A stretch of 64,000 nt of DNA from Candidatus Micrarchaeota archaeon (GCA_043821365.1 JBDRCX010000006.1:734151-798150); one strand, 5' to 3'. Shown: positions 14,954 to 53,421, counted from the first letter of the stretch. The notes: a model not told the origin generated them from the sequence alone. A program made the numbers and translations.

Positions 14954-15588
14954 TTTTGAAGAATCTAGGTAACATCCTTAAACAAATGCAGTTTCTGGCA
15001 AAAAAAAGAAAAGCGCCAGTTATATCTGCAGAGGATTCAACAAAAGGAAACAAATTCAAGATACTTGTTTTTACAATGCTTTCAGCACGTACTAAAGATC
15101 AAACTACAATTGCGGTAGTAAATCGTCTTTTTTCACAAGCAAAAGGTCCTAAAGAAATTATTAAATTAGGGCCGAAAAAACTTGAAAAAATTTTATATGG
15201 AGTTGGTTTTTACCGCGTTAAAACTAAGAATCTCTTGAAGATGTGTAATCTTTTAAAAGATGGCCAAGTTCCAGATAGTTTGGAAGATTTACTCAAAATC
15301 CCAGGGGTTGGAAGAAAAACTGCCAATATTGTTTTGGCCAGGGCATTTGGTAAAAATACTCTTGGTGTTGATGTGCATGTTCATCGAATTTCGAATCGTC
15401 TTGGTCTTGTTAAAACAAAAAAACCAGAAGAAACTGAAGAAAAACTTATGAAAATTATTCCTGATAAATATATTAGGAAACTGAACAAAACATTTGTTTC
15501 TTTTGGTCAAACTGTCTGTCTGCCAAGAAATCCTGATTGTTTAAATTGTCCAATTTCTGATTGTTGTCCAAAAATAGGAATTTTTTGA
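14950..15588 (+). CDS. nth: Endonuclease III
   Basis: MLSARTKD, LLKIPGVGRKTANIVL HhH, VDVHVHR, CLPRNPDCLNCPISDCC 4Fe-4S. Confidence 0.95.
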   Translation: MILKNLGNILKQMQFLAKKRKAPVISAEDSTKGNKFKILVFTMLSARTKDQTTIAVVNRLFSQAKGPKEIIKLGPKKLEKILYGVGFYRVKTKNLLKMCNLLKDGQVPDSLEDLLKIPGVGRKTANIVLARAFGKNTLGVDVHVHRISNRLGLVKTKKPEETEEKLMKIIPDKYIRKLNKTFVSFGQTVCLPRNPDCLNCPISDCCPKIGIF

Positions 15589-15657
15589 TTATCTTGAACG
15601 TTTCGACGTTCAAGGACATGTCCAAAAATAGGAAGGACAAATTATTGAAATTTGTCC
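15565..15657. repeat. 16-bp direct repeat flanking a hairpin insert, followed by a second hairpin
   Basis: TGTCCAAAAATAGGAA at 15565-15580 and 15619-15634; CTTGAACGT-TTCG-ACGTTCAAG (15593-15614); GGACAAATT-ATTGA-AATTTGTCC (15635-15657). Confidence 0.9.
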
Positions 15658-15702
15658 TGTTTGTAACTTATCAAATTTACAATACAATTAAAAAATAAAA
15701 AA

Positions 15703-16626
15703 TTATTTAGATTTTTTCTTTGGCAATGGTGTTATCCCAGCTGTTTCAGATATTATTGCTGAAATATCTGTACCTTCTGCAATGATGTACTTTGTGTTTT
15801 CACTCAATGAGTTCTGGGCAACCTGTAATTTCTTCAATGTTTGTGCGTCTCCTTTGAAATATTTCTGTGCAGCTTCATTCACAAGTTGAATTGCTTTTGC
15901 TTCTGCCTGAGCTTTCATCTCAACTGCATGCGCATCTGCCAAAGCTCTCAGTTCTATTGATTTTGCGTCTCCCTCGGCAACTTTTATTGCAGATCTTCGT
16001 TCACCATCTGCTCTTGTTTCTACTGCAGAAGCAAGATCAACAGCAGCAATTTTCTCATTTTCTGCTTTAACAACATTGTTCATTGCTTGCTGAACATCGT
16101 GTGGTGGGTCTATTCTTTGAAGTTCAACTCTGATAATGTTAACTCCCCACTGATTAGTTTCTTTATCTAGTTGGTTTTCTACCTCTGTGTTTATTCGTTG
16201 TCTGTTTTCATTTGCTTCTGTAAGTGTCATCTTACCCATAAGAGCCCTAAGTGTTGTCTGTGCAAGTGATGGAATTGCGGTTCTGTAATTATCTATTTGG
16301 TAAACTGCCTTATTTATGTCGTCTATTTTGTAATAAACAATTGCATCAACCACTGCATTAAGATTATCTTTTGTAATGACTGTTTGTTGGTCAACATCAA
16401 CTCTCATCTCAGTTGTTGGAACTTTTATCACATTCTCAACAAATGGTATTACCACCAAAAGTCCTGGATCTGCGAGTCTATTAAATTTACCAAATCTTTC
16501 TACAAGTGCCTTTTCCACTGGTCTTATTATTCTAAGTCCAGCAAAGAGCAAGAAAACTAATAAAACTAAACCCCCCATCAAAAGTACTGGTAGACAAGCT
16601 CCCAAACCTAATAATTCGACTGCCAT
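15703..16626 (-). CDS. SPFH/band 7 (stomatin/prohibitin-like) membrane protein
   Basis: N-terminal TM, VERFGKF, QTVITKDN, AQTTLRALMG, WGVNIIRVELQRIDPP. Confidence 0.93.
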   Translation of the reverse strand: MAVELLGLGACLPVLLMGGLVLLVFLLFAGLRIIRPVEKALVERFGKFNRLADPGLLVVIPFVENVIKVPTTEMRVDVDQQTVITKDNLNAVVDAIVYYKIDDINKAVYQIDNYRTAIPSLAQTTLRALMGKMTLTEANENRQRINTEVENQLDKETNQWGVNIIRVELQRIDPPHDVQQAMNNVVKAENEKIAAVDLASAVETRADGERRSAIKVAEGDAKSIELRALADAHAVEMKAQAEAKAIQLVNEAAQKYFKGDAQTLKKLQVAQNSLSENTKYIIAEGTDISAIISETAGITPLPKKKSK

Positions 16627-16651
16627 ATTTGATCTATGGCATATTGATTAT

Positions 16652-17551
16652 TTAAATTATACTAGTTGCAAAAGAATCGAACTTTTTTTCTGTTAATTTT
16701 ACTGCTATTTTTTTTGCATGGTCTTGGTCTTTAGCAAGTGCAATGCAGCACCCTCCTCCTCCTCCACCAGTTACCTTTGCACCCAAAGCACCTTCTTCTA
16801 TTGCTATTTTATTTATCTCATCATTTTTTTCATTGGAAACTCCTATTTCTGATAAAAGTTTCTGATTATTGTTCATAAGAATTCCAATCTTTTCTAAACT
16901 GCCGTCTTCAATGGCCTTTTTTCCTTGAGCTTCAATATCCAAATATTCATCCAAAAGTTGCTGAAATTGTTCCCCATCATCATCCTTTAATTTTTGAACT
17001 CCTGCAACCATTTTTGCGGTTTCACTATATTTTCCGCTAAAAGCAATTACAATGTCTAATGTTTTTTTTGGTTTTAAGAATGTTAATCTGTTTTCATTTG
17101 AAGCATTTCCTCTTATATATTCTGCAATACCTCCATATGTTGCTATGGTATTGTCTACTCCACTTGGATTTCCGTGAAAAGCTTTTTCTCCATCATAAGC
17201 ATGTTTGTTTATCTGTTCATCAGTTAGCTTTAGCTTTTTCTCATCTGCAAATGCCCTTACCATACCAACACAAAAAGCTGCAGACGATCCAAGGCCTCCA
17301 TATGTTGGAAGGTCACCCGTAAGATGAACGTGGTATTTTTCCTTGATATTCATACTTTCAATAACTGCGTTTATACCACCCAAACTCATATCTGGCACAA
17401 CTACCATTTTTGTTATTATTTTGTTTTCATTTGCTTTATCAACTTTAACAATTGCTTTGTTTGCTATCCCTCCTGCTATTGCAGGTGCTCCATGAACAAC
17501 AAAGTGCTCACCAAAAAGAATTACTTTACCATGGCCAGTACCTTCTCCCAA
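16652..17551 (-). CDS. mvk: Mevalonate kinase (GHMP)
   Basis: GKVILFGEHFVVHG, GGLGSSAA, HGNPSGVDN, GAKVTGGGGGGC; TTG start. Confidence 0.92.
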   Translation of the reverse strand: MGEGTGHGKVILFGEHFVVHGAPAIAGGIANKAIVKVDKANENKIITKMVVVPDMSLGGINAVIESMNIKEKYHVHLTGDLPTYGGLGSSAAFCVGMVRAFADEKKLKLTDEQINKHAYDGEKAFHGNPSGVDNTIATYGGIAEYIRGNASNENRLTFLKPKKTLDIVIAFSGKYSETAKMVAGVQKLKDDDGEQFQQLLDEYLDIEAQGKKAIEDGSLEKIGILMNNNQKLLSEIGVSNEKNDEINKIAIEEGALGAKVTGGGGGGCCIALAKDQDHAKKIAVKLTEKKFDSFATSII

Positions 17552-17555
17552 AAAT

Positions 17556-18335
17556 TCACCCTTTCGGTTTCCTGCCCTTTACTTTTGGTGGTTTAATGTC
17601 TGGGTGTGCGTCGGTAAGCATTCCAGGACTTGCATATGGTTTGTATCCAATAGTTTCAAAGACTTTGCAAATAAGGTAGGCATCTTCAGGACCGTTTGTT
17701 AATTTTGGTTCCAGCTCCTTTAATGCAACAAGAAGATTTGTGTATGCTTTTCGTTTTCCTTTTGTTACATTTTCAACTAGGGTGTCATCCTTATTGATGC
17801 CAGCAAACTCAAATGCTTTATTCACTATGGAATGATTAACTCCAGATAAAATAGCAGAAACTTCGTAATCTTGAACTTTTTCTATTCCTAATTTTTTTAC
17901 TGAAACCCATTCATTGTATTTCCCCATAAATCCGATGAAATCTTCTATTTTTTCATTAGCTGGTTTTGGTGCATTTGTTGGCATTATTTTGAATTGTACA
18001 TTTGCTTGCGTAAGTAGTTTATTGAATAAATAACACTCAGCAACACAAATTAGTTTTGGATTATCTACACAAGTTCCAAGTGTATCTCTTAGTTTTGCTG
18101 CATTTTCAATAAATTCAATAACTGCTTTCAAACCAGTTCCTTTTAGTTTCACCATCTCATCTATTTTTTTGGTATTAATACCTGAAAATTCATATGCTGG
18201 TTGTTCTATGTTTGAACTGATAAAAGCAAGAACCTGTGCAACTTCTTTTGGTTCTTTATCTTTAAGGTCAAATGCAACACCCAATCGAAATCCCTTATAT
18301 TCTCCCGTAAATATCACTTCATTTTTTCCATACAT
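17556..18335 (-). CDS. DUF2666-like protein with two internal copies of the domain
   Basis: Halves IFTGEYKGF..EVAQVLAFISSNIEQPAYEFSGIN and IGFMGKYNEW..EVSAILSGVNHSIVNKAFEFAGIN; C-terminal PKVKGRKPK. Family assignment from recall. Confidence 0.6.
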   Translation of the reverse strand: MYGKNEVIFTGEYKGFRLGVAFDLKDKEPKEVAQVLAFISSNIEQPAYEFSGINTKKIDEMVKLKGTGLKAVIEFIENAAKLRDTLGTCVDNPKLICVAECYLFNKLLTQANVQFKIMPTNAPKPANEKIEDFIGFMGKYNEWVSVKKLGIEKVQDYEVSAILSGVNHSIVNKAFEFAGINKDDTLVENVTKGKRKAYTNLLVALKELEPKLTNGPEDAYLICKVFETIGYKPYASPGMLTDAHPDIKPPKVKGRKPKG

Positions 18336-18396
18336 ATTGATAACCCAGAATTTCTTATCTAAATAAGTTATTAAAGCTTAAATCAAAACTAACTAC

Positions 18397-19587
18397 ATGC
18401 GCAGAAGAATGCACATGGTTCAGATTAAAAAACCTCCATCTCCTCCAACACTGATAGGTAAGGCATATTCACCCGAAATGATCCAAAAACTTGTCTCAGA
18501 ACTTTCCAGTGGAAGTTCTGATAGAGAAATAAAAGCATTTAGCGAGTTTGTAGATCATCAGGAGCAAGTCTTTTCAAGTATTTCAGATATTCCAGATCTT
18601 ACAAATACTGAAGTTATTGAACTAATTCTTGCAACTGTTATGCGTTATGATGATGAGATTATAAAAAATCTGGAAGCTGAAAAAAAGAAAAAACAACTCC
18701 AATTCCTTGCAACTACTCCATATATTCCATTTCCAATACAAGAAAAAGCAAAAGCAGCAGTAAAGCGTTTGCACACTGGAAAATTTCAAGAAAAAGTTAC
18801 AATTCCTCCTCTGCATGTTAATACATACAGTCCTAAAAGAGTAGAATTACTTGTGCAAAATTTGAATTCAGAAAGAAAAGAACAAAAAATTCCAGCAGCA
18901 GTTGAATTTATTCATAATTATCCCCGTATTACTCCAACAGTTTCAAAAATGCCAATGCTCACCGTAACCCAGGTGACTACAAAAGCAATCGAAATCATAG
19001 ATCAAAATCCAAAGGAAGTTATACGTATAATGGTAAGTAAAAAAATGGTTTCTGAATTGTTTTTTCTGGCTTCCCTTTCTCAAGCGCCACCTAAAATCAG
19101 AGATATGGCTAGAAAAGCAGCAGAGACTCTACAATTAAAGTTACGTTTGCCTTCTCAAAAACCGCCAACCCAAATGCCAAAACAAAGTCCAAAGCCTACA
19201 GATGTACGAGTTCAAACACTGAAATTACAAAAATCTTATATGCCATTGGAATTGGAAGCTTTAGTTAGTGGTCTTGGAAGTGTGGAGAGTGTCAGGTCAG
19301 TAAAAGCAGCGATAGAATTTTTGAAAAACTATCAAATTATAGCTGAGACAATTGCTAAAACACCACAGATTACTATAACTGAGGTTACTACTAAAGTCGC
19401 ACAAGTAGTTGATAATAACCTAGACGTGATCCTCAAAGAATTGGAAAGACAAAAAGCAGTTCATGCGGTGAATTTCTTAGCAAATTCTGAAAAGTTTTCA
19501 ATGGCAGTACGAGAGCAAGCAAAGAAATTATTGGAAAGAATGCAGAACCCATTTTACACTGCGAAAAAAAGTGCTGAGAAAAAGTAA
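18397..19587 (+). CDS. Orphan helical protein with three ~105-aa repeats
   Basis: Repeats start YSPEMI, YSPKRV, YMPLEL and share EF, TxTEV/TQVTT and FLA positions. Confidence 0.75.
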   Translation: MRRRMHMVQIKKPPSPPTLIGKAYSPEMIQKLVSELSSGSSDREIKAFSEFVDHQEQVFSSISDIPDLTNTEVIELILATVMRYDDEIIKNLEAEKKKKQLQFLATTPYIPFPIQEKAKAAVKRLHTGKFQEKVTIPPLHVNTYSPKRVELLVQNLNSERKEQKIPAAVEFIHNYPRITPTVSKMPMLTVTQVTTKAIEIIDQNPKEVIRIMVSKKMVSELFFLASLSQAPPKIRDMARKAAETLQLKLRLPSQKPPTQMPKQSPKPTDVRVQTLKLQKSYMPLELEALVSGLGSVESVRSVKAAIEFLKNYQIIAETIAKTPQITITEVTTKVAQVVDNNLDVILKELERQKAVHAVNFLANSEKFSMAVREQAKKLLERMQNPFYTAKKSAEKK

Positions 19588-19620
19588 TTATAAATGTGAT
19601 CTATCATTACTTTCAACTAC

Positions 19621-19848
19621 GCCCCTGTAGCGCAGTCCGCTTTTTAGGAAAAAGCTTGGCAAAAACTGGTTGTTGTTTTTGTAGTTTTCTAATAAAAAGC
19701 AGGTGTTAAGGTAGCGCGCGTCCTTGGTATCGCACCTTTTTTCAAAAAGGTGCGCCAAAAACTTTTGTAAATAGTGACCCAGTTTTGGGCCGCCTTTTAC
19801 CAAAAGGCGGAGAGGACGAGGCCGCGAGTTCAATTCTCGCCGGGGGCT
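19621..19848 (+). tRNA. tRNA-Thr(GGU) with a D-loop intron (19636-19708) and 83 nt of intron sequence at 37/38 (19730-19812)
   Basis: Exons 19621-19635, 19709-19729, 19813-19848 give a 72-nt cloverleaf: GCCCCTG/CGGGGGC, GCGC/GCGC, CGTCC-TTGGTAA-GGACG, GCGAG-TTCAATT-CTCGC, U73; TATA TTATAAAT about 26 nt upstream. Confidence 0.9.
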
Positions 19849-19858
19849 TCTTATTGTT

Positions 19859-19880
19859 TGTGGAAACCACGGTTTCCACA
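19859..19880. repeat. 10-bp palindrome just downstream of tRNA-Thr
   Basis: TGTGGAAACC-AC-GGTTTCCACA. Confidence 0.85.
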
Positions 19881-19951
19881 CCTTTCGTTATCCTTTGGCT
19901 AGCACCCTCAGATCGTCTCTAATCATTTATGGCTATTTAGCTATATTTATA

Positions 19952-19969
19952 AATTAGGTGCACCTAATT
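19952..19969. promoter_or_regulatory. Putative DtxR/MntR operator (perfect 18-bp palindrome)
   Basis: AATTAGGTGCACCTAATT between the TATA-like TATTTATA and the regulator ATG; TTAGG..CCTAA core resembles DtxR/IdeR boxes. Confidence 0.8.
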
Positions 19970-19975
19970 CCGCTC

Positions 19976-20356
19976 ATGAAGCATAGTAAGCAGGTTAGTG
20001 CCAGTATTGATGAATATATCGAAGAAATGTATCGCTGCAATCTAAACAAAAAACCAATCACCACTAAAAATCTAGCTCAAAAATTAAAAATATCAATGCC
20101 ATCAGTAAGTGAAATGCTTCCTAAATTAAGAGAAAGAAACCTCATATTATACCAACCAAGAAAAGAAATCAAACTTACCAAAAAAGGGAAAAAATTAGGC
20201 TTAAATATATATAAAAAACACGAAACAATAAAGAAATTTTTTATAATGCTCGGACTTGGGAAAAAGAAAGCAACAGAGCAGGCATGTAGAATTGAACACG
20301 AACTTAGTGATGTGGCACTTAAGAAACTCGAACTTTTTTTGAAAAAATTAAAATAG
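19976..20356 (+). CDS. DtxR/MntR family metal-dependent repressor
   Basis: DEYIEEMY, LAQKLKISMPSVSEML, KHETI, ACRIEHELS. Confidence 0.92.
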   Translation: MKHSKQVSASIDEYIEEMYRCNLNKKPITTKNLAQKLKISMPSVSEMLPKLRERNLILYQPRKEIKLTKKGKKLGLNIYKKHETIKKFFIMLGLGKKKATEQACRIEHELSDVALKKLELFLKKLK

Positions 20357-20364
20357 GTGTTGCA

Positions 20365-20580
20365 TTGAACCTGCTTGATGTGAAAGAAGGAATAGAATTA
20401 TCTGTAAAAAAAGTTGATGGGGGTCAGGCTCTCTCACTTCGATTAAGTGAGCTTGGAATCTTTGAAGGTTCAAAGATCAAAGTTCTGAAAAACAAAAGGG
20501 GTCCAGTTATCTTGTGTGTCTTCGGATCAACACTTGCAATTGGAAGAGGCCAGGCAAAAAAGATAGAGGTAAGCAAATGA
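20365..20580 (+). CDS. feoA: Ferrous iron transport protein A
   Basis: RLSELGIFEGSKI, GPVIL, LAIGRGQAKKI. Confidence 0.92.
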   Translation: MNLLDVKEGIELSVKKVDGGQALSLRLSELGIFEGSKIKVLKNKRGPVILCVFGSTLAIGRGQAKKIEVSK

Positions 20581-22370: not shown

Positions 22371-22512
22371 GATTATTTCATTCTATGTGTTTGGATCTGT
22401 TATTCTCCTACTCATAATCTTTTATGTGAGGGGGTCTCTTTTCAAATATGGAAGTTGTAGTGGATGTCCATCTAGTGGAAATTGTATCATCGAGAAAAAA
22501 TTCAAATCATAA
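22360..22512 (+). CDS. FeoB-associated Cys-rich small membrane protein (50 aa, not in ORF track)
   Basis: MDYEIISFYVFGSVILLLIIFYVRGSLFKYGSCSGCPSSGNCIIEKKFKS; one TM then CxxCx5C; overlaps the feoB stop. Confidence 0.8.
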   Translation: MDYEIISFYVFGSVILLLIIFYVRGSLFKYGSCSGCPSSGNCIIEKKFKS

Positions 22513-22612
22513 TCTTTCGTCACCTGTCGTTTCGAAAGGTGACAACATTTATAAATTACCAATTCAATCTTGTACTCTAATTCTAATACCATCAGATTAA
22601 TGGCGGGATTTA

Positions 22613-24529: not shown

Positions 24530-24533
24530 AATT

Positions 24534-25775: not shown

Positions 25776-25784
25776 AGTGATCAT

Positions 25785-31579: not shown

Positions 31580-32188
31580 ATGGCAAAAAAAACAGAAAAA
31601 AAGCCTATTAAGAAAAAAGAAGAAAGTGATTCTTTTAGAGGTATAGTTCGTATTGCAGGTAAGGATGTTAAAGGTGAAGTAAAACTTCAACGTGCTCTTT
31701 GTAGTGTAAGGGGAATTAGCCATACATTATCTGTTGCAGCAGCTCGTTTAATTGAAAAAGAACTTTCAATAGCCCCAACTCACAGAGTTGGTGACCTAAC
31801 TGAAGAACAAATAGAAAAAATTGATCAACTTCTTTATTCTCTTCAAGATCATAATGTTCCTAAATATTTAATGAACAGAAGAACTGATTTCAATAGCGGT
31901 AATGATAGACATGTTATTATGAATGATCTTATATTCGAAAACACACAAGACATAGAAAGAGAAAAGAAAGCATACAGCTGGACTGGCTATAGACATAACT
32001 ATGGTCAAAAAGTTCGCGGTCAGAAAACCAGAAATACAGGCAGAACAGGTATGGCAGTCGGTGTGTTAAGAAAGGCAATTATAGCAGCTCAAGGTGGTGC
32101 TGCGGCTGCTGCTAAGCCAGCAGAAAAATCAGCAAAACCAGCAGAAAAAGCAAAACCAGCTGCTAAAGCAGCAGCAGATAAGAAGTGA
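31580..32188 (+). CDS. rps13: 30S ribosomal protein S13
   Basis: FRGIVRIAGKD, LMNRRTD, YRHNYGQKVRGQKTRNTGR; Ala/Lys-rich tail. Confidence 0.96.
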   Translation: MAKKTEKKPIKKKEESDSFRGIVRIAGKDVKGEVKLQRALCSVRGISHTLSVAAARLIEKELSIAPTHRVGDLTEEQIEKIDQLLYSLQDHNVPKYLMNRRTDFNSGNDRHVIMNDLIFENTQDIEREKKAYSWTGYRHNYGQKVRGQKTRNTGRTGMAVGVLRKAIIAAQGGAAAAAKPAEKSAKPAEKAKPAAKAAADKK

Positions 32189-32192
32189 TTAA

Positions 32193-32906
32193 ATGGGCGA
32201 TCCTAGAAAACTCCGGAACAAATACGAACGTCCCAAAAAATTGTGGGATGTAGACAGATTAAGACATGATAAAGCGTTGGAATCTGAATATGGACTTAAG
32301 AACATGCGGGAGCTTTGGAGGGCAACTGCAGAACTTAAAAAATACAGACGTGAAGCAAGGCGTCTTCTTTCACTTACTGAAGAAGAAAGAAAAGATGATG
32401 CAAAAAAAATTCTTGTCAAGCTTGCTAAGTTCGGTATTCTTAAAGAAGGATCTGCTATTGATGATGTGCTTTCTTTAGAAGTCAGAGCAGTTTTGGAAAG
32501 AAGACTTCAAACAATGGTTCTTAGAAAAGGACTTGCAGTTTCTTCAGCACAATCAAGACAACTGATTACTCATGGTTTCATTGCAATAAAAGGAAAAATA
32601 GTTACAAGACCAGGTTATCTTGTAAATGTTGCAGAAGAGTTGGTTCTTTCACATGCTAAACCAATTGAGTTACAAGCAAAAATAGTTGAAGAATCAACAG
32701 AAACTGAAAAACCAGAAGAAGCTGAAAAACCAAAAGAAACCAAGCCAAAAGAGATCGAGAAACCAAAAGAAGAAAAACCAAAAGAAAGTGAGAAACCAAA
32801 AGAAACTGAAAAACCAGAAGAAACCAAACCAGCAGAAGCTGAAGAAACTAAGCCGAAAGAAGCTGAAAAACCAGCAGAAGCTGAAAAACCAAAAGGGTCT
32901 TCTTAG
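32193..32906 (+). CDS. rps4: 30S ribosomal protein S4 with a repetitive Glu/Lys/Pro tail
   Basis: MGDPRK, YGLKNMRELW, LERRLQT, RQLITHG. Confidence 0.96.
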   Translation: MGDPRKLRNKYERPKKLWDVDRLRHDKALESEYGLKNMRELWRATAELKKYRREARRLLSLTEEERKDDAKKILVKLAKFGILKEGSAIDDVLSLEVRAVLERRLQTMVLRKGLAVSSAQSRQLITHGFIAIKGKIVTRPGYLVNVAEELVLSHAKPIELQAKIVEESTETEKPEEAEKPKETKPKEIEKPKEEKPKESEKPKETEKPEETKPAEAEETKPKEAEKPAEAEKPKGSS

Positions 32907-33503: not shown

Positions 33504-34162
33504 AACTCACTCTTGATAAAAAACATGCAAATAGGATCGTTGTTATTGCAAATGATACATCATCAAGTTTTGCAAATGTAGTCAGGCGTTATGGTATGTC
33601 CAGAGTTCCAGTTATGGCTATAGAGGGTGTAACATTTTATGATAACTCTAGTGCTTTTTGGGATGAATATTTGGCACATAGACTTGGTTTAGTGCCTTTA
33701 CTTACCCCAGAAAATACACAAGCAGATACAGAAGTTACATTTTCACTTGATGCGCAGGGCCCTAAGATAGTTCATTCATCTGACCTTGTTAGTTCTGATA
33801 AGGAAATTGTTGTTGCACAAGGAAAAATACCACTTGTGACTTTAGGTGAAAACCAACATCTGAGATTTGAATGCAAAGCTATTGTGGGTACTGCGGTTAC
33901 TCATGCTAAATTCCAAGCTGGTTTGATAAGTTATGGAATTGAAAATGATTCTGTTAGGTTTTTGTTTGAAAGTTTCTTCCAAATGGAACCAACTGATCTT
34001 GTTTCACGAACCTGCGATCTAATATTGGATGATCTTGAAAATATAGAAGCAGTTCTTGGAAAGAAATCAGCTAAAAAAGCAAAAGCAGAGAAAAAAGAAA
34101 AACCAGTTAAGGTTGCAAAACCTAAAAAAGAAAAAAAACCTAAGAAAGAAAAAGAAGAGTAA
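33500..34162 (+). CDS. rpoD: DNA-directed RNA polymerase subunit D (Rpo3)
   Basis: [38 protein letters not shown]. Confidence 0.93.
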
Positions 34163-34192
34163 CTCTCAAACTCTTTTGGAGGTTAGGTTGTC

Positions 34193-34326
34193 CTTGAAAG
34201 CGGACGCTTTCAAGACAGTAAAAATTATTTTCTAATTTTTACACGCAGGGGTGGCAGAGTTGTTTTGAACAAGTTCAAAGCCTCCGCCACATTCATTCGG
34301 TTATTCGACTGAAATAACTTTCATAA
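34193..34326. repeat. Hairpin cluster containing a 15-nt copy of the tRNA-Leu 5' end
   Basis: CTTGAAAGCG-GA-CGCTTTCAAG (34193-34214), GTAAAAATT..AATTTTTAC (34218-34242), GCAGGGGTGGCAGAG (34245-34259) identical to 34327-34341. Confidence 0.9.
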
Positions 34327-34410
34327 GCAGGGGTGGCAGAGCGGTCAAATGCGCCAGCTTGAGGGGCTGGTGGGTTAGTCCCTTCGAGTGTTCGAATCAC
34401 TTCCCCTGCA
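34327..34410 (+). tRNA. tRNA-Leu(GAG), intronless
   Basis: GCAGGGG/CCCCTGC, CCAGC-TTGAGGG-GCTGG, long variable arm, GAGTG-TTCGAAT-CACTT, A73. Confidence 0.96.
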
Positions 34411-34508: not shown

Positions 34509-34549
34509 GTTATCACCGAAAAGAATATATATCTATTTTCAGTGATAAC
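34509..34549. promoter_or_regulatory. 14-bp inverted repeat flanking the TATA box of the Fic gene
   Basis: GTTATCACCGAAAA-GAATATATATCTA-TTTTCAGTGATAAC (13/14 match). Confidence 0.75.
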
Positions 34550-34553
34550 TACT

Positions 34554-35528
34554 ATGGCAAGAATAGTAAAAAGGATCGTTAAAGGAAAGGTTTACTATTA
34601 CTTGGAAGAATCCATAAAAAAAGGAACTAAATGGATCAAAGAAAGCGTGTATTTGGGTAAAGATTTACCCGATAACATAAAACTGACTAAAATTTACAAA
34701 AAATTCGAGGAAACGCTTAAGCTGAAAGGCATTTCTGGGATTACCCCTCCGTTTACGGAATTCATAACCCGTCATCTCGCCCTAAAAATAGAAAAAGCAG
34801 CTAAGGATAAGTTATTGTTCTTGAATTCACTTTCTTCCAAACAGAGAATTGAATTTATCAGAAGAGAAAGAATAACATTTGTTACGGACTCAAATGCTAT
34901 CGAGGGGTCAACTTTAGACTACTGGCTGACGGAAAGAATTCTCTCGGACCAAAAAAGAATTGAAATGCTGCAGAAACGAGGAGTAATCGTTACGAATATG
35001 GATAAGGAAGAACAAGAGGCACTCAATCTAAACAAGTGCTTAGATATCTATGAAAAACTTCTTAAAAACAAAAGAGAGTTAACTGGTGAAATGATTCTAC
35101 AATTTCATTGTGTGCTCCTTTCGAAAATAGATGGCTATGAACGGTACTGTGGCATTTGGAGACCGGTGAATGTAAGAATCCGCGGTTCGGATTATGTTTT
35201 CCCACATCACCAAGAAGTCCCAAAGCTTATGAATGAACTGTTTGGCTGGTATTCCAAAAATAAAGATTTGATCCACCCGGTAGAACTTGCTGCAAAGTTC
35301 CACACTAAATTCACTACAATTCATCCATTCGCTGATGGAAATGGGAGGATGGCAAGACTGCTTATGAATTATATACTTCAAGTAAATAAAATCCCATTCA
35401 CAAATATTCCTCTTAGCAAACGAAGCAAATATATGCGAACTCAGGAGGCTGGCAATCGCGGCAACCAAAAACTGTTTGTTCTTTTCTTAGCCCAAGAGAT
35501 AATCAAACAGAACCAAAAATTGAACTGA
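34554..35528 (+). CDS. Fic domain protein with an N-terminal basic beta-rich module
   Basis: Intact HPFADGNGRMAR motif; SNAIEGST; N-terminus KGKVYYYLEES..YLG. Confidence 0.95.
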   Translation: MARIVKRIVKGKVYYYLEESIKKGTKWIKESVYLGKDLPDNIKLTKIYKKFEETLKLKGISGITPPFTEFITRHLALKIEKAAKDKLLFLNSLSSKQRIEFIRRERITFVTDSNAIEGSTLDYWLTERILSDQKRIEMLQKRGVIVTNMDKEEQEALNLNKCLDIYEKLLKNKRELTGEMILQFHCVLLSKIDGYERYCGIWRPVNVRIRGSDYVFPHHQEVPKLMNELFGWYSKNKDLIHPVELAAKFHTKFTTIHPFADGNGRMARLLMNYILQVNKIPFTNIPLSKRSKYMRTQEAGNRGNQKLFVLFLAQEIIKQNQKLN

Positions 35529-45527: not shown

Positions 45528-45911
45528 ATGGAAGAAAGACAGCACGAATCGCATGAAATCCCGGAATCTATGAGAAGTCCACAATTAGATGCAGTTCTGT
45601 TAAAAAGTACCTCAGGACCTCTACAAAATGCACAATTAGAGGCAGTTTTACTAAAACATCAAATTCCTCCAGAATATGTTTTAGATTATTTCAGGACTCG
45701 GTCTAAGTGGTCTGATCCACTAAAAATTAATGCTGGAATCTCAACAAAACTTGCATTTACACTTGGTTTTCTAACTGCGCATAAAAGAAAATCTCCAGAG
45801 TCAATAGGGTTCGGAGAATTAACAAGTTTAGATGTTGCCACACTGGATAAAAACCTAAATATCCTTAGCGGGGTAAGTGGATCAGCAGTTGAATGGAGGA
45901 TTAGATCCTAA
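45528..45911 (+). CDS. Hypothetical protein
   Basis: ORF from MEERQHES fills the gap. Confidence 0.55.
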   Translation: MEERQHESHEIPESMRSPQLDAVLLKSTSGPLQNAQLEAVLLKHQIPPEYVLDYFRTRSKWSDPLKINAGISTKLAFTLGFLTAHKRKSPESIGFGELTSLDVATLDKNLNILSGVSGSAVEWRIRS

Positions 45912-46316
45912 TTATTCATATCTTCTTAATTTATATGCTAAAAAGATGCTCCCAACCATCATACTAAGGAAAAACGATCCTAACAATGCAAAAAACATGT
46001 CGGTTATTGGTACAAAGAATCTATCTATTATGAATATCACTCCTATCATAAATGCAAGAAAAAAGAACGAGTGTGAAGTTGCAACTGCAATGTTAAAAGT
46101 GGTTGTTTCTTCAGACATAAAAGATGGTTGGACCCAGGTTAAGTAAATTGATGTTGCACCCATAAATATAAGCCCAATAGCAAAGAACCCCATTAAGCCC
46201 GGGTCAATTAGTATGCCTGTGAAGAAGAAACCAAGAGAAACTGCAAAGAAAATTGAAACTATTTTGTACTTTCTAATGTCCTTGACAGCTCTTGTTATAT
46301 CAAATTTTTTTACCAT
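45912..46316 (-). CDS. Hypothetical four-TM membrane protein
   Basis: 134 aa, four hydrophobic segments. Confidence 0.7.
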   Translation of the reverse strand: MVKKFDITRAVKDIRKYKIVSIFFAVSLGFFFTGILIDPGLMGFFAIGLIFMGATSIYLTWVQPSFMSEETTTFNIAVATSHSFFFLAFMIGVIFIIDRFFVPITDMFFALLGSFFLSMMVGSIFLAYKLRRYE

Positions 46317-46347
46317 TAATATGTAAATTATCTTATAATTTATAAAT

Positions 46348-47655: not shown

Positions 47656-47754
47656 GCACTTATTTAGAGGTAAATATTTATTTAGATTGAGGTTATTTTT
47701 TTTGAAATTTGCTAAAAAATAGGTTTTTATAGGCCTATAGAGAAGTCTATACCC

Positions 47755-48546
47755 ATGGTGGGCGGAATAAAAGGCATCGCCCGGCGACCTTATGATGGTG
47801 ACAAAAGAGTAGGTACACGACATGCCTACATTGTAAGCCAGTTAAAAGAACGAGGGTGCAAGCCAAAAATAGACCAATACGGTAACATTTGGGTGGATAA
47901 AGGTAGCGGCAGCCCGTTTAGATTATTTTCATCTCATATTGATGTTGATCCAAGAATCCGCCATCTGACGTTTAAGTATCAAGATGATTGTGGTAGGAAA
48001 ATAATGAAAGGAGTATTGGACAATGCAGTTGGTTGCTATCTAAACCTCCTACTTGCTCAAAAAGGACCAAAAAAAGGAAGGGCAATCTACATATTTACTG
48101 CTTCTGAAGAAATTAAAAGAAACCACCCAAGGATGTTTGCAAGAAGTGCAAGAGAGATTACTAAACAACTTAAAAAAAGAAAACTAAGACCAGACTATTG
48201 CGTTACTATAGATGTTACCTACCCTAAATTACATTCCCCCCAAGAAGAAACTGATTGGGACAAAGAGTATGAACAGATTTTTGATCTTGAGGACGAGACT
48301 CATTGTTATGTTGATGGTTTTTCGAGGCCAGTTTCGCGTCGTTTAGGGCTTCATTTTGTTAAAAAGTTCAAAGATCCAAAAGTCTTAATACGAGATTTTC
48401 ATGGTCATGATGAAGCCATAGTTTATGACCGCACTTGTCCATCGTTTGCGTTTGGTCCAGTTGTTTATGGTAGTTTTGACAGGTCTGAACAAGTGATGCC
48501 ATTATCTCATCTTAAAACTGCATTAAAATTTCTAAGAAGAGTTTAA
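47755..48546 (+). CDS. M28/M42-like metallohydrolase
   Basis: FSSHID, GVLDNAVG, FTASEE, TIDVT, GHDE metal-ligand order. Confidence 0.75.
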   Translation: MVGGIKGIARRPYDGDKRVGTRHAYIVSQLKERGCKPKIDQYGNIWVDKGSGSPFRLFSSHIDVDPRIRHLTFKYQDDCGRKIMKGVLDNAVGCYLNLLLAQKGPKKGRAIYIFTASEEIKRNHPRMFARSAREITKQLKKRKLRPDYCVTIDVTYPKLHSPQEETDWDKEYEQIFDLEDETHCYVDGFSRPVSRRLGLHFVKKFKDPKVLIRDFHGHDEAIVYDRTCPSFAFGPVVYGSFDRSEQVMPLSHLKTALKFLRRV

Positions 48547-48569
48547 AATCCTCCTTCATCATATTATTT

Positions 48570-49259
48570 ATGTATAAATTTGTTATAATTATTTTGACAT
48601 TTACGTTTTTTAGTGGTTGTTGTGATCTAACTACACCGGATAGTTATGATTCATTTGACTATCAGTCAACCAACTATTCTAATACTTATGATAATTCCTA
48701 TCCTTCTACTCAGAATGGGGCAACCACCTCGGTATCTTCAGTACAACAGCTACCGGAGGTTGTCGTAAATGGAAAGACCCTTTCTCTAGAAGAGATTCAG
48801 GAACTGGTTAATTATTATGGTATTTTCTATGAAGGCAGATTCTGGTATGATCCAATAAGCGGTCTTGCCGGAAGAGAAGGTTATCCAGCTGAATTTAGGC
48901 TTTATCCAGGACATACATTTCTTGGAGAAATTGATCAGGATGCTTCAAATGGTGATACTGGTGTTATTGTAAATGACCGAGAATTAACTGAAGTAGAAAT
49001 ACAGTACCTTGAGAGTGTTTTACAAATGCAAAGACAACCAGGCTATTACTATCTTGATTCACAGGGTAATTTTGGTAATAATATTTATGGATATGTAAAT
49101 CTCTATTCAGTTGGAAGTGGCGGATACTATGATAATAACGGCCAATACCAGGGAACTGGTGAGGTCTGGAGCACTTCTGGAGGTTATGGTGGTAATTCTC
49201 AAGGTGGCTGTTCATACGTAAATGTTGGTGGGGACTTTGCAACTTCTGGATGTGGCTGA
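48570..49259 (+). CDS. Lipobox protein with a domain resembling the plant XLG/EDR4 region
   Basis: FSGCC; VVVNG, FWYDPISGLAG, GDTGVIVNDREL. Confidence 0.7.
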   Translation: MYKFVIIILTFTFFSGCCDLTTPDSYDSFDYQSTNYSNTYDNSYPSTQNGATTSVSSVQQLPEVVVNGKTLSLEEIQELVNYYGIFYEGRFWYDPISGLAGREGYPAEFRLYPGHTFLGEIDQDASNGDTGVIVNDRELTEVEIQYLESVLQMQRQPGYYYLDSQGNFGNNIYGYVNLYSVGSGGYYDNNGQYQGTGEVWSTSGGYGGNSQGGCSYVNVGGDFATSGCG

Positions 49260-49403
49260 TTTTTATTAAAAATTTAATCGAAAGTTATTATCTTTATCAC
49301 TTCTAACATATATTTATTAATACAGTTAAGTAATACACTTTTAGGTAGTAGTTCTTTTTTTAGAAAGACTATCAAAGTCAGGTACAAGCTTGATATAAAA
49401 TTA

Positions 49404-49425
49404 AAAAAGAACATTAGTTCTTTTT
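49404..49425. repeat. AAAAAGAAC-family hairpin
   Basis: AAAAAGAAC-ATTA-GTTCTTTTT. Confidence 0.8.
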
Positions 49426-49443
49426 AAAATAGGTGAAATATAA

Positions 49444-49587
49444 ATGGATGGAGACAGAGGTAGCGATAGGCCAATGTTTGACGCAGTTTGTTCAAAATGT
49501 GGTCAGCCTTGTCAAGTACCGTTCAAACCTTCAGAAGGTAGACCGGTTTACTGCAAAGCATGCTACAAACCAAAATCAAGATTCTAA
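49444..49587 (+). CDS. CxxC-x17-CxxC domain microprotein (47 aa)
   Basis: AGGTGA SD; RPMFDAVCSKCGQPCQVPFKPSEGRPVYCKACY. Confidence 0.92.
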   Translation: MDGDRGSDRPMFDAVCSKCGQPCQVPFKPSEGRPVYCKACYKPKSRF

Positions 49588-49608
49588 ATTCATAAATGTT
49601 TTGAAGAA

Positions 49609-50499
49609 TCAATTAATTATTCCTTTTTCTACTAATTCTAAAATATTATCTACAGTTTCAGCTCTGCAAATTTTATCTCTTAATCTAGATGCATGAGATA
49701 ACCCAGTGATAAAATTCACTGCCTTCACCTTGATGTCATTTACTTCTACTTCTCCTAGATATCTTTCATGCAATCTAATATATTCACTTAAGATTGCTAT
49801 TCTTGAGGTTATTTCTTTCTCATTAAAGAGCATTGGATTGACCATTGCAGCCCTGCCAATCATAAAAGAATGGCAATATCCTTCATTAACATATTTCTGA
49901 CCTTGTTCAATTGTTTTTATATTTCCGTTTCCAATTACTTCTATTTCCAAATTCTCTTTTAAATATCTGATTTCTTCCCAATTTGTATTTCCTGAATATC
50001 CTTGTTTTACTGTTCTTCCATGGACTATTATGGATTCTGCTCCTGCATCTTGGATTTTTTTACATATCTCAAGAGTTTCTTTTTTGTTTGATCTTAGCCT
50101 TATTTTTACACTTACATTGTCATGGTGTTTTTTCATTCCTAAAACTGACTTCACAATGATTTCTGGTTTCTCTAGGAGAGCACTCCCTCCACCACTTTCT
50201 CTTGTTCTAGTCGAAGGGCAACCACAATTCAAATTCAACCATTTTACAAAAGGTTTCTCTTCCACTACTATTCTGGCTGTTTTTTCTATATCCTCTGGAT
50301 TATTTCCAACCAATTGCACTCCAATATTTTTCTCATCTTTATGAGCATCTACAAAGGAAATTTTTTCATCTAATCGTGCAATTGCAGTTGAATTTACAAG
50401 AGGAACACAAGTTGCTATGGCACCATATTTTTGGCAGAGTAATCTAAATGGCAAATTAGTGTATCCATCTATAGGTGCAAGAAAATTAGCATAAGCCAT
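49609..50499 (-). CDS. dus: tRNA-dihydrouridine synthase
   Basis: LAPIDGYT, VQLVG, LNCGCP, SVKIR, IVHGRT, IGNGNI, MIGRAA. Confidence 0.92.
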   Translation of the reverse strand: MAYANFLAPIDGYTNLPFRLLCQKYGAIATCVPLVNSTAIARLDEKISFVDAHKDEKNIGVQLVGNNPEDIEKTARIVVEEKPFVKWLNLNCGCPSTRTRESGGGSALLEKPEIIVKSVLGMKKHHDNVSVKIRLRSNKKETLEICKKIQDAGAESIIVHGRTVKQGYSGNTNWEEIRYLKENLEIEVIGNGNIKTIEQGQKYVNEGYCHSFMIGRAAMVNPMLFNEKEITSRIAILSEYIRLHERYLGEVEVNDIKVKAVNFITGLSHASRLRDKICRAETVDNILELVEKGIIN

Positions 50500-50528
50500 A
50501 GCTGAGTATTATCTACAAAATATTAAAA

Positions 50529-52112
50529 CTACTGTTCTCTTCTACCCAAGCGCGCTTCAAAAAACTCCTTTATTAATTTACCAACTTCTTTGAATTCATT
50601 TGTATCTGCTATCATCACTGGTCTAAACCCAACCAATCCTTCTGGTTCTGTACCAAGAACATAAAAACGATCTATAGGAGGGAAAAGTACTCCGGTTTCC
50701 ATGAGTAAATCAGCACATAATATATCTGATGCACCCATCCGTGCCACAGGAACCCTTGTTAGGTAATCATCAAGTGCACTCATTGCTTCGTGATTACCTG
50801 CAGCATCCATCATGGCCCTAACCCGTCCTAGTATTATTTCCTTATACCCAATTTCAAGCCAGGGTAAATCGTCTCCACGTACAACAAAGACGTTATATCC
50901 ACTACTTTCTATTTTTATTTCTGGGTATAGTGACTGTAAATATGGAGATAATCCTGCCATGAAAGCTTGGTTACCTCCGTGACCATCCTCACCAATAAAC
51001 CGTCTACGTGCTTCTTGTCTAACCCACTCAAGTGTGGGGTGGGGGGCACCTTCTCTCTCGCTAATAAGAATGTCATGTGCAGCAACCAAACCTTTTACTG
51101 ATGTGTATGATTGTGGGTTCAGTCCAATGTCAAATAGTGATTCTAACCCTCTTATGACTCCACCAGCAGCATAACTCCTGAGGCGCTTTGGGACATATAT
51201 GGCTATTACTCCTGCTCTTTTTCCAGGCTCAAGCATTACTTTCGAGGCGCTGTTTGTAAATATTAATATGTGTTTTTCATCTGCAAGTTCTATCAATTTA
51301 TCTATTGTTAGTTGTGTTTTTGGCCATGACATGGACATATAGATAACATCAACTACAAATGGTCGTATTACCCCATCTTTTAATGTGGCCATCTCTGCCA
51401 TATCAAACAAACCACTTCCTTTATCATTCCTATAAACTTCAGGTGTATGAACTATCGGTAGGGGATTCTCATGAGTTACTACTGTTGCCAATCCAGCAAG
51501 TCTAAATGGATTATTATGTTTTCCGTATCTGTTACTGTCAGGCAATCCTGTTTTTGGATCACGTTCAATTGAAACTATTCCCCCTCTTCCAACAAGCATT
51601 GTTGCTACTGCAAGATGAGTTGGGTATGTTAAATTCGGAACTGCCATGTGCATTCCAGTATTTAGTAATAGTAATTGCTGTATTGTTTGGATAGCACCAC
51701 TTATACCTGCTGTAAAAAAAATGTGGTTTGGATCTTCTATTCTGTAATACGGAGCTATTTTTGCTCTATCTTTCTGCAAATCTTTCAGGTATTCGCCACT
51801 TACTGTGTCTTCACTACCTGCTTTATATCTAAGTGACCTTAACATTGCATCTCTTATTGTTGGAACAACAACACGGGGAAAATATTTTGGGAAGTTTCCA
51901 GAATCAAATCTTCTGAGTTCTTTTCCATTTGGTAATTTCCCATCCACTACAACTGCCCCAGCCAAAACTCTTGCCCAAGTATCTTTTAATGTTTGTTCTC
52001 TGCCATCTACCACTGCTCGGTTTACTTTTACTCTTGCATCAAGACCACTAAGTTTTGCAAAATAAGCATCGTTTGATGGTGGTGACCCTAATCGTTTTGC
52101 TGTCATGGCCAA
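50529..52112 (-). CDS. Highly divergent fold-type I PLP-dependent aminotransferase-like protein
   Basis: FTAGISGAI, NLTYPTH, VVDVIY, TNSASKVMLEPGKRAG, GFRP. Confidence 0.75.
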   Translation of the reverse strand: MAMTAKRLGSPPSNDAYFAKLSGLDARVKVNRAVVDGREQTLKDTWARVLAGAVVVDGKLPNGKELRRFDSGNFPKYFPRVVVPTIRDAMLRSLRYKAGSEDTVSGEYLKDLQKDRAKIAPYYRIEDPNHIFFTAGISGAIQTIQQLLLLNTGMHMAVPNLTYPTHLAVATMLVGRGGIVSIERDPKTGLPDSNRYGKHNNPFRLAGLATVVTHENPLPIVHTPEVYRNDKGSGLFDMAEMATLKDGVIRPFVVDVIYMSMSWPKTQLTIDKLIELADEKHILIFTNSASKVMLEPGKRAGVIAIYVPKRLRSYAAGGVIRGLESLFDIGLNPQSYTSVKGLVAAHDILISEREGAPHPTLEWVRQEARRRFIGEDGHGGNQAFMAGLSPYLQSLYPEIKIESSGYNVFVVRGDDLPWLEIGYKEIILGRVRAMMDAAGNHEAMSALDDYLTRVPVARMGASDILCADLLMETGVLFPPIDRFYVLGTEPEGLVGFRPVMIADTNEFKEVGKLIKEFFEARLGRREQ

Positions 52113-52262
52113 TGAATTATTAGTTAGAATTTATAAATTATGTTGTAATCTGGGTATTCATTTGTAGATAAGATTCCACACACCAGACCTCTGCTCGTCT
52201 ATTGCAAACATTTATATTGTTTATTTGCCTCTTTTATTCAAGAGTTCATTGACGCGAGAGAT

Positions 52263-52363
52263 GTAAAAATGCGAATGCATTTTTACTTAATCGAAATTGA
52301 AATTTCGATGAGTGGCAAAATTGATTCAATTTTGTCTTCATAAAAATTGCAATTTTTATGAGG
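52263..52363 (+). promoter_or_regulatory. Four consecutive hairpins in the alba 5' leader, the last covering the SD
   Basis: 52263-52286, 52290-52309, 52315-52335, 52336-52363; SD GAGGTG at 52360-52365. Confidence 0.75.
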
Positions 52364-52370
52364 TGTATAC

Positions 52371-52721
52371 ATGGAAGAAAACGTAGAGAATACAGAACAA
52401 CCTGTAAACGAACAACCTGTAAACGTAGAAACAGAACAACCGGTAAAACGAAGAGATGACAACACAGTGTATGTGGGTAAAAAAGGCACTATGGGCTATG
52501 TTCTAGCTGTAGTAACTCAGTTCAATAATGGTGCAACAGATGTCTGCGTAAAAGCAAGAGGGAAATTAATTGCAAGGGCAGTTGATGTTGTTGAGATCGT
52601 TCGACATAGGTTCATGCCAAATGCAAAGATTCAAGACATCTCAATATCTACTGAGGAACTTACATCAGAAGACGGTTCAAAAAACAAAGTTTCTTCTATT
52701 GAAATAAAAATACAGAAGTAG
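52371..52721 (+). CDS. albA: DNA/RNA-binding protein Alba
   Basis: VYVGKKGTMGYVLAV, KARGKLIARAVDVVEI, VSSIEI. Confidence 0.96.
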   Translation: MEENVENTEQPVNEQPVNVETEQPVKRRDDNTVYVGKKGTMGYVLAVVTQFNNGATDVCVKARGKLIARAVDVVEIVRHRFMPNAKIQDISISTEELTSEDGSKNKVSSIEIKIQK

Positions 52722-52725
52722 TGTT

Positions 52726-53343
52726 ATGAAAGTACTTGATACTAAGGGCATTTTACTCGCCCTTTTTTTTGGTTTTATTCTTTTTGTTTTTGGTGGGTTT
52801 AGCTATCTTGTTTTGATGTTAGTTTTCTTCTTCCTGGCAATTCTAGTAACCAGATATGATTACGAACTAAAACGTGATCTTGGTCTCTATGAGCATGAAC
52901 GTGGTTGGGAGAATGTCCTATCAAATGGATCTTTACCTGCATTACTTGCTCTTTTGAGTCCAATTACAGGTCCAATTCCATTCATTGCATCAATTGCAGC
53001 AGTTACTGCAGATAAATTTGGTTCTGAAGTTGGAGTTCTTGATCGTAATGATCCAGTTTCGGTTTTGAATTTTAAGCATGTTAAACCAGGTACAAGTGGT
53101 GCTATGAGCATACTAGGAACAATTGGTTCTTTTGCTGGTTCAGGTTCAATCGGATTTGCAGCTATGTTCATATTCAATTTGGATCCAACCCAAGCATTTT
53201 TGATATCTATTGCTGGATTAGTTGGTGCTATTTTTGATACGTTATTCGGTGTACTAGAAGAAAGAGGAATAGGCACAAAAGGCACAACAAATTTGATTTG
53301 TTCTCTTGCTGGTGCATTAATAGGTTATTATTTTATTAAATAA
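52726..53343 (+). CDS. DUF92 family membrane protein
   Basis: RGWENVLSNG, AAVTADKFGSEVG, PGTSGAMS, FDTLFG, TNLICS. Confidence 0.9.
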   Translation: MKVLDTKGILLALFFGFILFVFGGFSYLVLMLVFFFLAILVTRYDYELKRDLGLYEHERGWENVLSNGSLPALLALLSPITGPIPFIASIAAVTADKFGSEVGVLDRNDPVSVLNFKHVKPGTSGAMSILGTIGSFAGSGSIGFAAMFIFNLDPTQAFLISIAGLVGAIFDTLFGVLEERGIGTKGTTNLICSLAGALIGYYFIK

Positions 53344-53421
53344 GGAGGGTTTTCAATGTTTACATTACATATGATGGGGATGGAAAACCCCACGGCTAAT
53401 GGCGTGGAGGGTTTTCAATGA
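53344..53421 (+). repeat. 15-bp duplication of the SD+ATG around a 47-nt hairpin insert, creating a 21-aa uORF (53356-53421)
   Basis: GGAGGGTTTTCAATG at 53344-53358 and 53406-53420. Confidence 0.9.

Follow-up and report, generated by a model that had tools for sequence, protein, structure and literature searches.

Small repeats for which no enzyme is known are common in reduced genomes, such as those of mitochondria, Rickettsia and DPANN archaea, and their mode of spread is a question of long standing. Here we describe such repeats in a 64,000-nucleotide stretch of DNA (the window) from Candidatus Micrarchaeota archaeon (GCA_043821365.1, JBDRCX010000006.1:734151-798150), in which three loci show a short exact direct repeat on both sides of a hairpin-bearing insert: the 3' end of the endonuclease III-like gene nth (locus A), the 5' end of a tRNA-Leu gene (locus B) and the start of a sugar-phosphate nucleotidyltransferase (NTP-transferase) gene (locus C). 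The genome under study is labelled G000, so that the window is G000:C6:734151-798150, and other G numbers designate relatives of the same genus. The closest known kinds are repeats resembling repetitive extragenic palindromic (REP) sequences or miniature inverted-repeat transposable elements (MITEs), the hairpin repeats of mitochondria, mycobacterial interspersed repetitive units (MIRUs) and putative mobile promoters. As far as shown, the loci do not represent a new kind of mobile element, and no description of these hairpin families was found in the literature searched. The genus is favourable for the question of spread, with dozens of genomes, dated gains together with their empty sites, and several families; moreover, a site duplication combined with an inverted copy is a clear signature that constrains the mechanism.

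REP sequences and REPINs with their associated tyrosine transposases (RAYTs), and the palindromes derived from IS200/IS605, resemble the hairpins of this genus in being short, dispersed, intergenic and often paired, and a gene for a Y1 transposase is indeed present in G000. They differ in that Y1 genes here, found in 9 of the 40 genomes of the genus, are flanked by GC-rich hairpins of their own and not by those of the GAAC type seen at locus B. The IS200/IS605 transposase family makes no target duplication. Mitochondrial hairpin and double-hairpin elements and the Rickettsia palindromic elements offer another parallel, with single or double hairpins that invade intergenic DNA, RNA genes and even coding sequences of reduced genomes and for which no enzyme is known (PMC2800124). 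The double-hairpin elements of Allomyces reportedly lack flanking duplications (PMC2800124), whereas a subset of the elements described here has long duplications and inverted copies. Casposon duplications have a fixed length of 15 bp beside terminal inverted repeats, with targets at tRNA genes (PMC5137440). The 15-bp duplication and the tRNA-gene target are found in the window as well, but casposons are large, have terminal inverted repeats and their own casposase, use the tRNA 3' end and make a fixed duplication, none of which applies here. Short-range template switches create hairpins and adjacent inverted copies in one step, and can leave direct repeats if the polymerase returns upstream of its exit point (Loytynoja and Goldman 2017, PMC5453318; Monttinen and Loytynoja 2022, PMC8794818); that model uses nearby template only, whereas the hairpin cores described here come from families common to distant loci. 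Lastly, MIRUs insert at start codons and contain an internal open reading frame (ORF) coupled at -4 (Supply et al. 1997, summarised in PMC12548453), and putative mobile promoters are near-identical upstream sequences found before unrelated genes (Nijveen, Matus-Garcia and van Passel 2012, PMC3575422).

Three repeat-insert-repeat loci and empty sites in relatives

Our results support the existence of a recurrent insertion process in this genus, and the three loci do not represent one element: A carries a twin-hairpin element, B a GAAC hairpin with an inverted piece of the tRNA 5' end, and C a leader cassette. We put at about 0.5 the probability that the three structures are by-products of short non-coding hairpin cassettes, spread genus-wide in at least three sequence families and copied by homology-guided template switching. 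Comparisons among the genomes show that cassette arrival is accompanied by a duplication of 14-25 nt of the recipient, reaching 43-45 nt for doubled promoter/Shine-Dalgarno (SD) cassettes. By the same comparisons, the downstream copy keeps the region of the stop, the 5' end of the tRNA or the SD and ATG working. It is retained together with the cassette, whereas the upstream copy appears to decay as the insertion ages. G000 is an AT-rich, metagenome-assembled genome of 1.2 Mb (36% GC, 87% complete); it was compared within a set of 40 genomes of the genus, and orthologous DNA between the compared species is about 75% identical.

All three exact repeats of the original prediction were recovered (16, 15 and 15 nt, with inserts of 38, 67 and 47 nt), and its view that three such close pairs exceed chance is confirmed genome-wide. 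Indeed, exact repeats of at least 14 nt lying at most 200 nt apart number 75 in G000 versus 1-5 in five second-order Markov resamples, and the background of the same repeat class at distances of 2-20 kb is about 5.5 per 200-nt bin. Coding tandem repeats, with a spacing that is a multiple of 3, account for most of this excess, and some 15 loci contain hairpins and are situated at gene boundaries or in intergenic DNA. There is also an excess of perfect hairpins with 9-11 bp stems (84 versus 10 for 10-bp stems), and a repeat of at least 12 nt brackets 17 of 558 hairpins versus 19 of 3000 random positions, that is, about five times more often; 97% of the hairpins have no such bracketing repeat. 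That the repeats are a chance coincidence or an artefact of assembly, which an AT-rich, metagenome-assembled genome might invite one to suspect, is scarcely credible in view of the 75 seen against 1-5 expected and of the same architectures in independently assembled genomes of other species.

Single-copy sites in relatives, a comparison suggested by the original prediction, were found at A, at C and at a further locus. Locus A lies at the 3' end of nth, which is convergent with a Band-7 gene. There, G015 and G024 have a single copy of the repeat (TGTCCAAAATTAGGA..) with the stop after it, and G000 has 103 additional nt consisting of a 54-nt unit (repeat plus insert) and a second element, Z, which directly follows repeat A2, has one copy in G000 and at least 8 in G012, and is part of the 103 nt absent from G015. 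Hairpin 1 of the twin-hairpin element is made up of repeat A1 and the inserted TTTTTTG; its 5' arm and loop are native nth sequence. The family follows a common plan: a variable stem 1, CAAGAAA..TTTCTTG (CAAAAA..TTTTTG at locus A), the linker ACT(A/G)T, stem 2, CTTGAA..TTCAAG, and a tail NACA. At least 10 strict copies are present in G000, and a copy lies in-frame inside a DUF460 gene. The 54-nt unit matches G000 C6:72433-72565, where it forms 2.5 tandem units, as well as C6:475601, C6:187303 and copies in relatives.

At locus C, seven relatives have a single SD and ATG with no insert. Elsewhere in G000, a 19-nt repeat at C2:22439 corresponds to a single native copy in G024 and G015, and relatives are without the entire insertion of about 155 nt at C3:19499, where the 43-nt repeat represents a tandem-doubled, dispersed cassette and not native sequence. 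Reciprocally, 400 kb of G024 read as an independent replicate contained four boundary loci of the same kind, and G000 is single-copy at three of the G024 events (C9 at 65664, 130126 and 203591). As empty sites are found in both directions, the process is genus-wide and has been active in both lineages since they split. Locus B, between the gene for RNA polymerase subunit D and an intact tRNA-Leu(GAG), adds a site that was hit repeatedly. At the orthologous tRNA-Leu of four relatives, the same order recurs: a perfect 5'-end stub, a family hairpin, a piece of the stub in reverse complement, a spacer and the tRNA. Stub length is 13 nt in G005, 9 nt in each of G011 and G016, and 7 and 17 nt in G023; two relatives have no stub. 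This variety implies at least three events at the tRNA-Leu site, some of them common to several species.

The anatomy of the inserts agrees in part with what had been predicted. The functional elements are intact: nth keeps the fourth and last cysteine codon of its FeS cluster (TGT, 15565-15567, the first codon of repeat A1), tRNA-Leu(GAG) is whole, and the NTP-transferase gene keeps its SD and ATG. The three loci are unrelated as targets, and their inserts fall into different repeat families. An initial TT, proposed as common to all inserts, is not general, since the first letters elsewhere are CG, AT, GT or AA. Folding is strong for A (z = -3.1) and good for C (z = -2.4 to -2.6); insert B has a long clear stem but a z of -1.1. 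An insert-borne reverse complement of the repeat is significant for C (p = 0.005) and for B (p = 0.04), and for A it is not above chance (GGACA, p = 0.37).

A reverse complement of adjacent DNA within the insert is a feature of short-range template switching. It is seen in part of inserts B and C and, genome-wide, at 10 of 29 boundary loci versus 4 of 54 coding-repeat loci. Boundary repeats measure 14-45 nt and lie 0-47 nt from the hairpin. Purely local mutation, in which slippage or short-range template switching would make repeat, inverted copy and hairpin de novo, might explain this enrichment; the four-point template-switch model can yield the repeat/inverted/repeat order (PMC5453318, PMC8794818), and the insert at C2:22439 has no family match beyond a generic hairpin. 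Nevertheless, we consider purely local mutation very unlikely, because the cores of A and C are common to several loci and species, with up to 98-100% identity, and the hairpins are missing from the empty sites. Since cores are shared between loci, local template switching is insufficient by itself. By the test originally proposed to separate a mobile element from template switching, the broad range of repeat lengths points to template switching, but the inserts carry family cores and not solely local inverted sequence.

Table 1. Positions of the features at loci A, B and C, counted from the first letter of the window
Locus	Feature	Position	Strand	Remarks
A	nth (endonuclease III-like, HhH-GPD) ORF	14950-15588	+	protein end with the insert: CPKIGIF, stop
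A	repeat A1, TGTCCAAAAATAGGAA	15565-15580	+	16 nt; native nth 3' end; once in G015 and G024
A	insert A, 38 nt	15581-15618	+	3' arm of hairpin 1 and linker TTTTTTGATTAT, then hairpin 2, tail GACA
A	hairpin 2 of insert A, CTTGAACGT-TTCG-ACGTTCAAG	15593-15614	+	
A	repeat A2	15619-15634	+	exact duplicate of A1
A	Z, GGACAAAT..ATTTGTCC, TGTTT, GTAA..TTAC, AATACAA	15635-15687	+	second twin-hairpin element, other family
B	twin-hairpin family element	34188-34244	-	abuts repeat B1
B	repeat B1, GCAGGGGTGGCAGAG	34245-34259	+	15 nt; stub copy of tRNA-Leu nt 1-15
B	insert B, 67 nt	34260-34326	+	GAAC-type hairpin, inverted stub piece, 36-nt spacer
B	GAAC-type hairpin, TTTTGAAC-AA-GTTCAAAG	34263-34280	+	in insert B
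B	CTCCGCCAC	34282-34290	+	reverse complement (8/9) of stub nt 7-15
B	tRNA-Leu(GAG)	34327-34410	+	intact; first 15 nt are repeat B2 (34327-34341)
C	repeat C1, GGAGGGTTTTCAATG	53344-53358	+	15 nt; upstream copy of SD and ATG, opens 21-codon small ORF
C	small upstream ORF, MFTLHMMGMENPTANGVEGFQ, stop	53356-53421	+	TGA overlaps NTP-transferase ATG (ATGA)
C	insert C, 47 nt	53359-53405	+	filler, conserved core GATGGGGATGGAAAACCCC (53373-53391), loop; genus-restricted leader family
C	hairpin, GGAAAACCCCAC / GUGGAGGGUUUUC	53383-53416	+	predicted to sequester SD of NTP-transferase gene, -18 kcal/mol
C	repeat C2	53406-53420	+	functional SD and ATG of NTP-transferase gene
C	NTP_transferase (sugar-phosphate nucleotidyltransferase) gene	53418-54122	+	

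A leader family at start codons

Locus C, between a DUF92 gene and the NTP-transferase gene, belongs to a family of leader cassettes (family C) of about 62 nt, built from the core GATGGGGATGGAAAACCCC, a loop of 12-15 nt and GAGGGTTTTCA(N)ATG. The SD of the NTP-transferase gene, GGAGGG, lies in the 3' arm of a stem of 8-12 bp, opposite GAAAACCCC (z = -2.6), and the 8-bp stem of the family contains one covarying pair (GC in 17 copies, CG in 5, AU in 2, with one mismatch). The core has 4 copies in G000 and about 35 in 12-15 of the 40 genomes of the genus, and was absent from all of 136 genomes representing 47 other genera of the order. All 26 usable copies end in ATG and are co-oriented with the gene that follows; in 23 of them, this ATG opens an ORF that has at least 60 codons or reaches the end of the locus. 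The host genes encode the E1-beta subunit of pyruvate dehydrogenase (3 species), phosphoenolpyruvate synthase (PpsA; 2), a pilin-like protein (2), FEN1 and others. In 11 of the 26 copies, including that of locus C, an ORF of 20-24 codons closes in ATGA on the host start; in the rest, it is broken or ends a few nt from the start.

A tandem array of 65-nt units is present in G044. Recent copying is indicated by three identical 43-nt copies that precede three different genes in G046, and by the leader at locus C, which shares 98% identity with one before E1-beta in G015, versus about 75% for orthologous DNA. Where E1-beta, PpsA and pilin loci are orthologous, the core and the right copy of the duplication are conserved and the left copy is decayed; about half of all members of the family lack a left copy altogether. 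Decayed or absent left copies at old loci suggest that, in family C, the left copy acts as a scar.

The anatomy of locus C is suggestive of coupled translation. The ribosome-binding site of the NTP-transferase gene itself would be locked in the 8-12 bp hairpin, and the duplicated upstream SD and ATG, being free, would load ribosomes onto the ORF of about 20 codons; these would pass through the hairpin and stop at the ATGA on the gene start, and NTP-transferase might then be translated by coupling, as proposed for mycobacterial MIRUs. The likeness to MIRUs consists in short repeats at start codons, co-oriented and sometimes in tandem, with the stop of a small ORF overlapping the host start by 4 nt (ATGA), an arrangement in which translational coupling would maintain expression of the host gene. 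The differences are that family C is archaeal, confined to one genus of Micrarchaeota and unrelated in sequence, that a covarying hairpin sequesters the host SD, and that young copies are flanked by an exact duplicate of 14-16 nt covering SD and ATG. If this is true, a mobile leader family would rewire how genes are translated. The family shows how a whole module of translation control (ribosome-binding site, small ORF and hairpin) can be transplanted before unrelated genes, which matters for gene calling and for the reading of regulation in uncultured archaea.

Putative mobile promoters share with these leaders the near-identical sequences before unrelated genes (PMC3575422). They differ from the present unit, which is defined to the base and ends in SD and ATG; it inserts precisely at the start codon, and the former SD and start persist as a stub. 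Such stubs are seen farther upstream of the cassettes at G000 C3:19499-19603 and G024 C9:203591-203703. These are promoter-like/SD/ATG cassettes of 43-45 nt, tandem-doubled around a hairpin and inserted exactly at the start codon, and the cassette is dispersed in G015.

The same features might suggest that the triplets are RNA devices maintained by selection, the inverted piece pairing with either copy and the upstream copy serving as a decoy or ribosome loading site that selection or local gene conversion keeps identical. The covarying stem, the retention of the cassette at orthologous genes and the small ORFs coupled through ATGA are in keeping with such devices. We regard this explanation as unlikely, although it is to be taken seriously: left copies are decayed at the old orthologous loci and missing altogether from about half of the family, the gains at A, C and C2:22439 are lineage-specific and lie beside unrelated genes, and identical copies before unrelated genes of one genome speak for spread and not for tailored regulators.

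Further observations concern the same family. Rfam searches at locus C gave nothing credible even at E <= 10, and the exact 29-nt sequence beside the locus had no match in the metagenome contigs scanned. The core was also considered as a C/D-box RNA or a hammerhead, and both were rejected (no D box, no conserved core). Lastly, at G000 C6:301980, 361086, 199235 and 39092, the ribosome-binding region has the form AGGGTTTTCA(N)ATG without the family C core; these genes may represent footprints of excised cassettes or preferred targets.

Enzymes and the mode of copying

In the 87%-complete G000, no match was found to Cas1 (PF01867, for which control genomes were positive), to the reverse transcriptase RVT_1 (PF00078), to DDE_Tnp_1 or to Phage_integrase (Xer-type tyrosine recombinase, present in 14 of 14 control genomes). 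One TnpB fragment was detected, together with a single IS200-type Y1 (HUH) transposase gene at C3:96623-97072. Y1 genes were not found in G024, G015 and G012, all of which bear the repeats. At eight loci (in G000 and seven others), the Y1 genes are flanked by GC-rich end hairpins of another type; a RAYT-like tie to the GAAC hairpins was rejected, for although hairpins of this type lie a few hundred nt upstream of two Y1 genes, all Y1 genes have their own GC-rich end hairpins. Furthermore, inserts A, B and C have no termini or terminal inverted repeats in common. The origin by casposase or target-primed retrotransposition put forward in the original prediction is thus not supported, given the missing Cas1 and RVT_1, the missing shared terminal inverted repeats and repeats ranging from 14 to 45 nt. 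A duplication of variable length does agree with a target-primed retroelement; this feature is not specific.

More generally, the cassettes could be non-autonomous, MITE-like transposons mobilised in trans by a transposase making long staggered cuts, in which case the repeats of 15-16 nt would be true target-site duplications. The three repeats of this length in the window, the single-copy sites in relatives, the 15-bp duplications of casposons at tRNA genes (PMC5137440) and the one Y1 and one rve gene of G000 would all fit. As to the hallmarks of classical MITEs, several twin-hairpin copies are bounded by CATG or CATGG, DDE_Tnp_1 was not found, and the one rve gene lies on a 3-kb contig. We nevertheless hold it quite unlikely that the cassettes are transposons of this kind: Cas1 and reverse transcriptase were not found in G000 and terminal inverted repeats in common are missing from the inserts, repeat lengths (14-45 nt) and spacers vary, within a family the repeats are similar both to one another and to the element, G024 has such loci with no Y1 gene found there, and IS200 ends are unlike these hairpins and are not associated with duplication.

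We infer that the cassettes move by homology-guided copying rather than through a transposase with fixed staggered cuts, because the duplications vary in length, the repeats look like the cassette end, the empty sites were similar beforehand, tandem arrays occur and inverted copies are frequent. Repeats at different loci of one family indeed resemble each other and the cassette's own end, and the empty sites AAGGTTTTGATATG in G015 and AGAGGATTCTAAATGA in G000 resemble GAGGGTTTTCAATG of the cassette. New copies would arise where a target already resembles the cassette end, through template switching from a donor copy or short-patch recombination with it. Such copying would occur during replication or break repair, and an occasional snap-back would add the inverted copy. 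A more tentative extension, which we think possible and would not put forward as the probable outcome, is that these DPANN archaea harbour a transposase-independent form of cassette movement, in which cassettes copy themselves by template switching onto start codons, tRNA 5' ends and gene ends that resemble their own ends and duplicate the site, which is thereby self-healing, with one family acting as a mobile translational-coupling leader and forming the first archaeal MIRU-like system.

Several points weigh against the copying of hairpin cassettes by template switching. The presence of one Y1 gene and one rve gene (on the 3-kb contig) and the 87% completeness of G000 leave room for a missing enzyme. 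Ordinary twin-hairpin copies are bounded by just 4-5 nt (CATG/CATGG), as in a conventional small target duplication, and, compared with G015, AATT stands on both sides of the entire insertion of 99-103 nt at A; from these bounds and flanks, the 16-nt repeat at A may have arisen secondarily, by partial tandem duplication of an element that had inserted conventionally. The similarity between empty sites and cassette ends is drawn from two cases and lends thin support, and the mode of copying is deduced throughout. The term insertion itself relies on comparisons at about 75% identity, as these are made between species and not between alleles of one species. Finally, the tRNA-Leu stubs (7-17 nt) are perfect in five species while the surrounding spacer has diverged, and the repeat-insert-repeat at G000 C1:44432 is kept in G024 and G003, with both copies carrying the same substitution in G003. 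Perfect stubs and co-varying copies point to selection or gene conversion and not to a decaying scar, and both, together with the C box (TGATGA) and two CTGA boxes conserved at C1:44432 in three species, count in favour of selected RNA devices.

Candidate small RNA, neighbouring genes and other repeats

The C1:44432 locus, which lies outside the window, was dropped as an insertion scar because it is conserved in three species with C and D boxes. The region C1:44417-44520 contains the TGATGA box, two CTGA boxes each preceded by the same 11-12 nt, GATCTTGAGTT, and a family hairpin in the middle; from this arrangement, it is probably a small RNA of the C/D-box type with a duplicated guide. Close to it, the hairpin CCGGAATGTTAAATATTTTCCGG at C1:44348-44383 is 90-97% identical to many sites in G012, G003, G014 and G015 and represents a dispersed, conserved short element. 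Within the twin-hairpin family, 30 nt of a copy at G000 C6:475605-475634 are 100% identical to G024 C9:473152-473181, where orthologous DNA is about 75% identical. This copy is either functionally conserved or recently exchanged.

A reading of locus B as a tRNA intron at nt 15/16 was rejected on inspection, as stub, hairpin and inverted copy form no bulge-helix-bulge beside the second copy; such a reading is also needless, because RNase P cleavage at the intact tRNA requires no splicing. In an Rfam search of the window, tRNA alone reached the threshold. Directly 3' of tRNA-Leu lies a Fic-family gene (window 34542-35528), and in G015 a similar Fic gene is bracketed by copies of the tRNA 3' end. 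The region has the look of a small integrated island, although no tyrosine integrase was found in G000. In the genes upstream of tRNA-Leu, Lys/Glu/Pro-rich coding tandem repeats with units of 21-84 nt (window 32100-32900 and 34090-34155) make up most of the remaining close direct repeats of the window.

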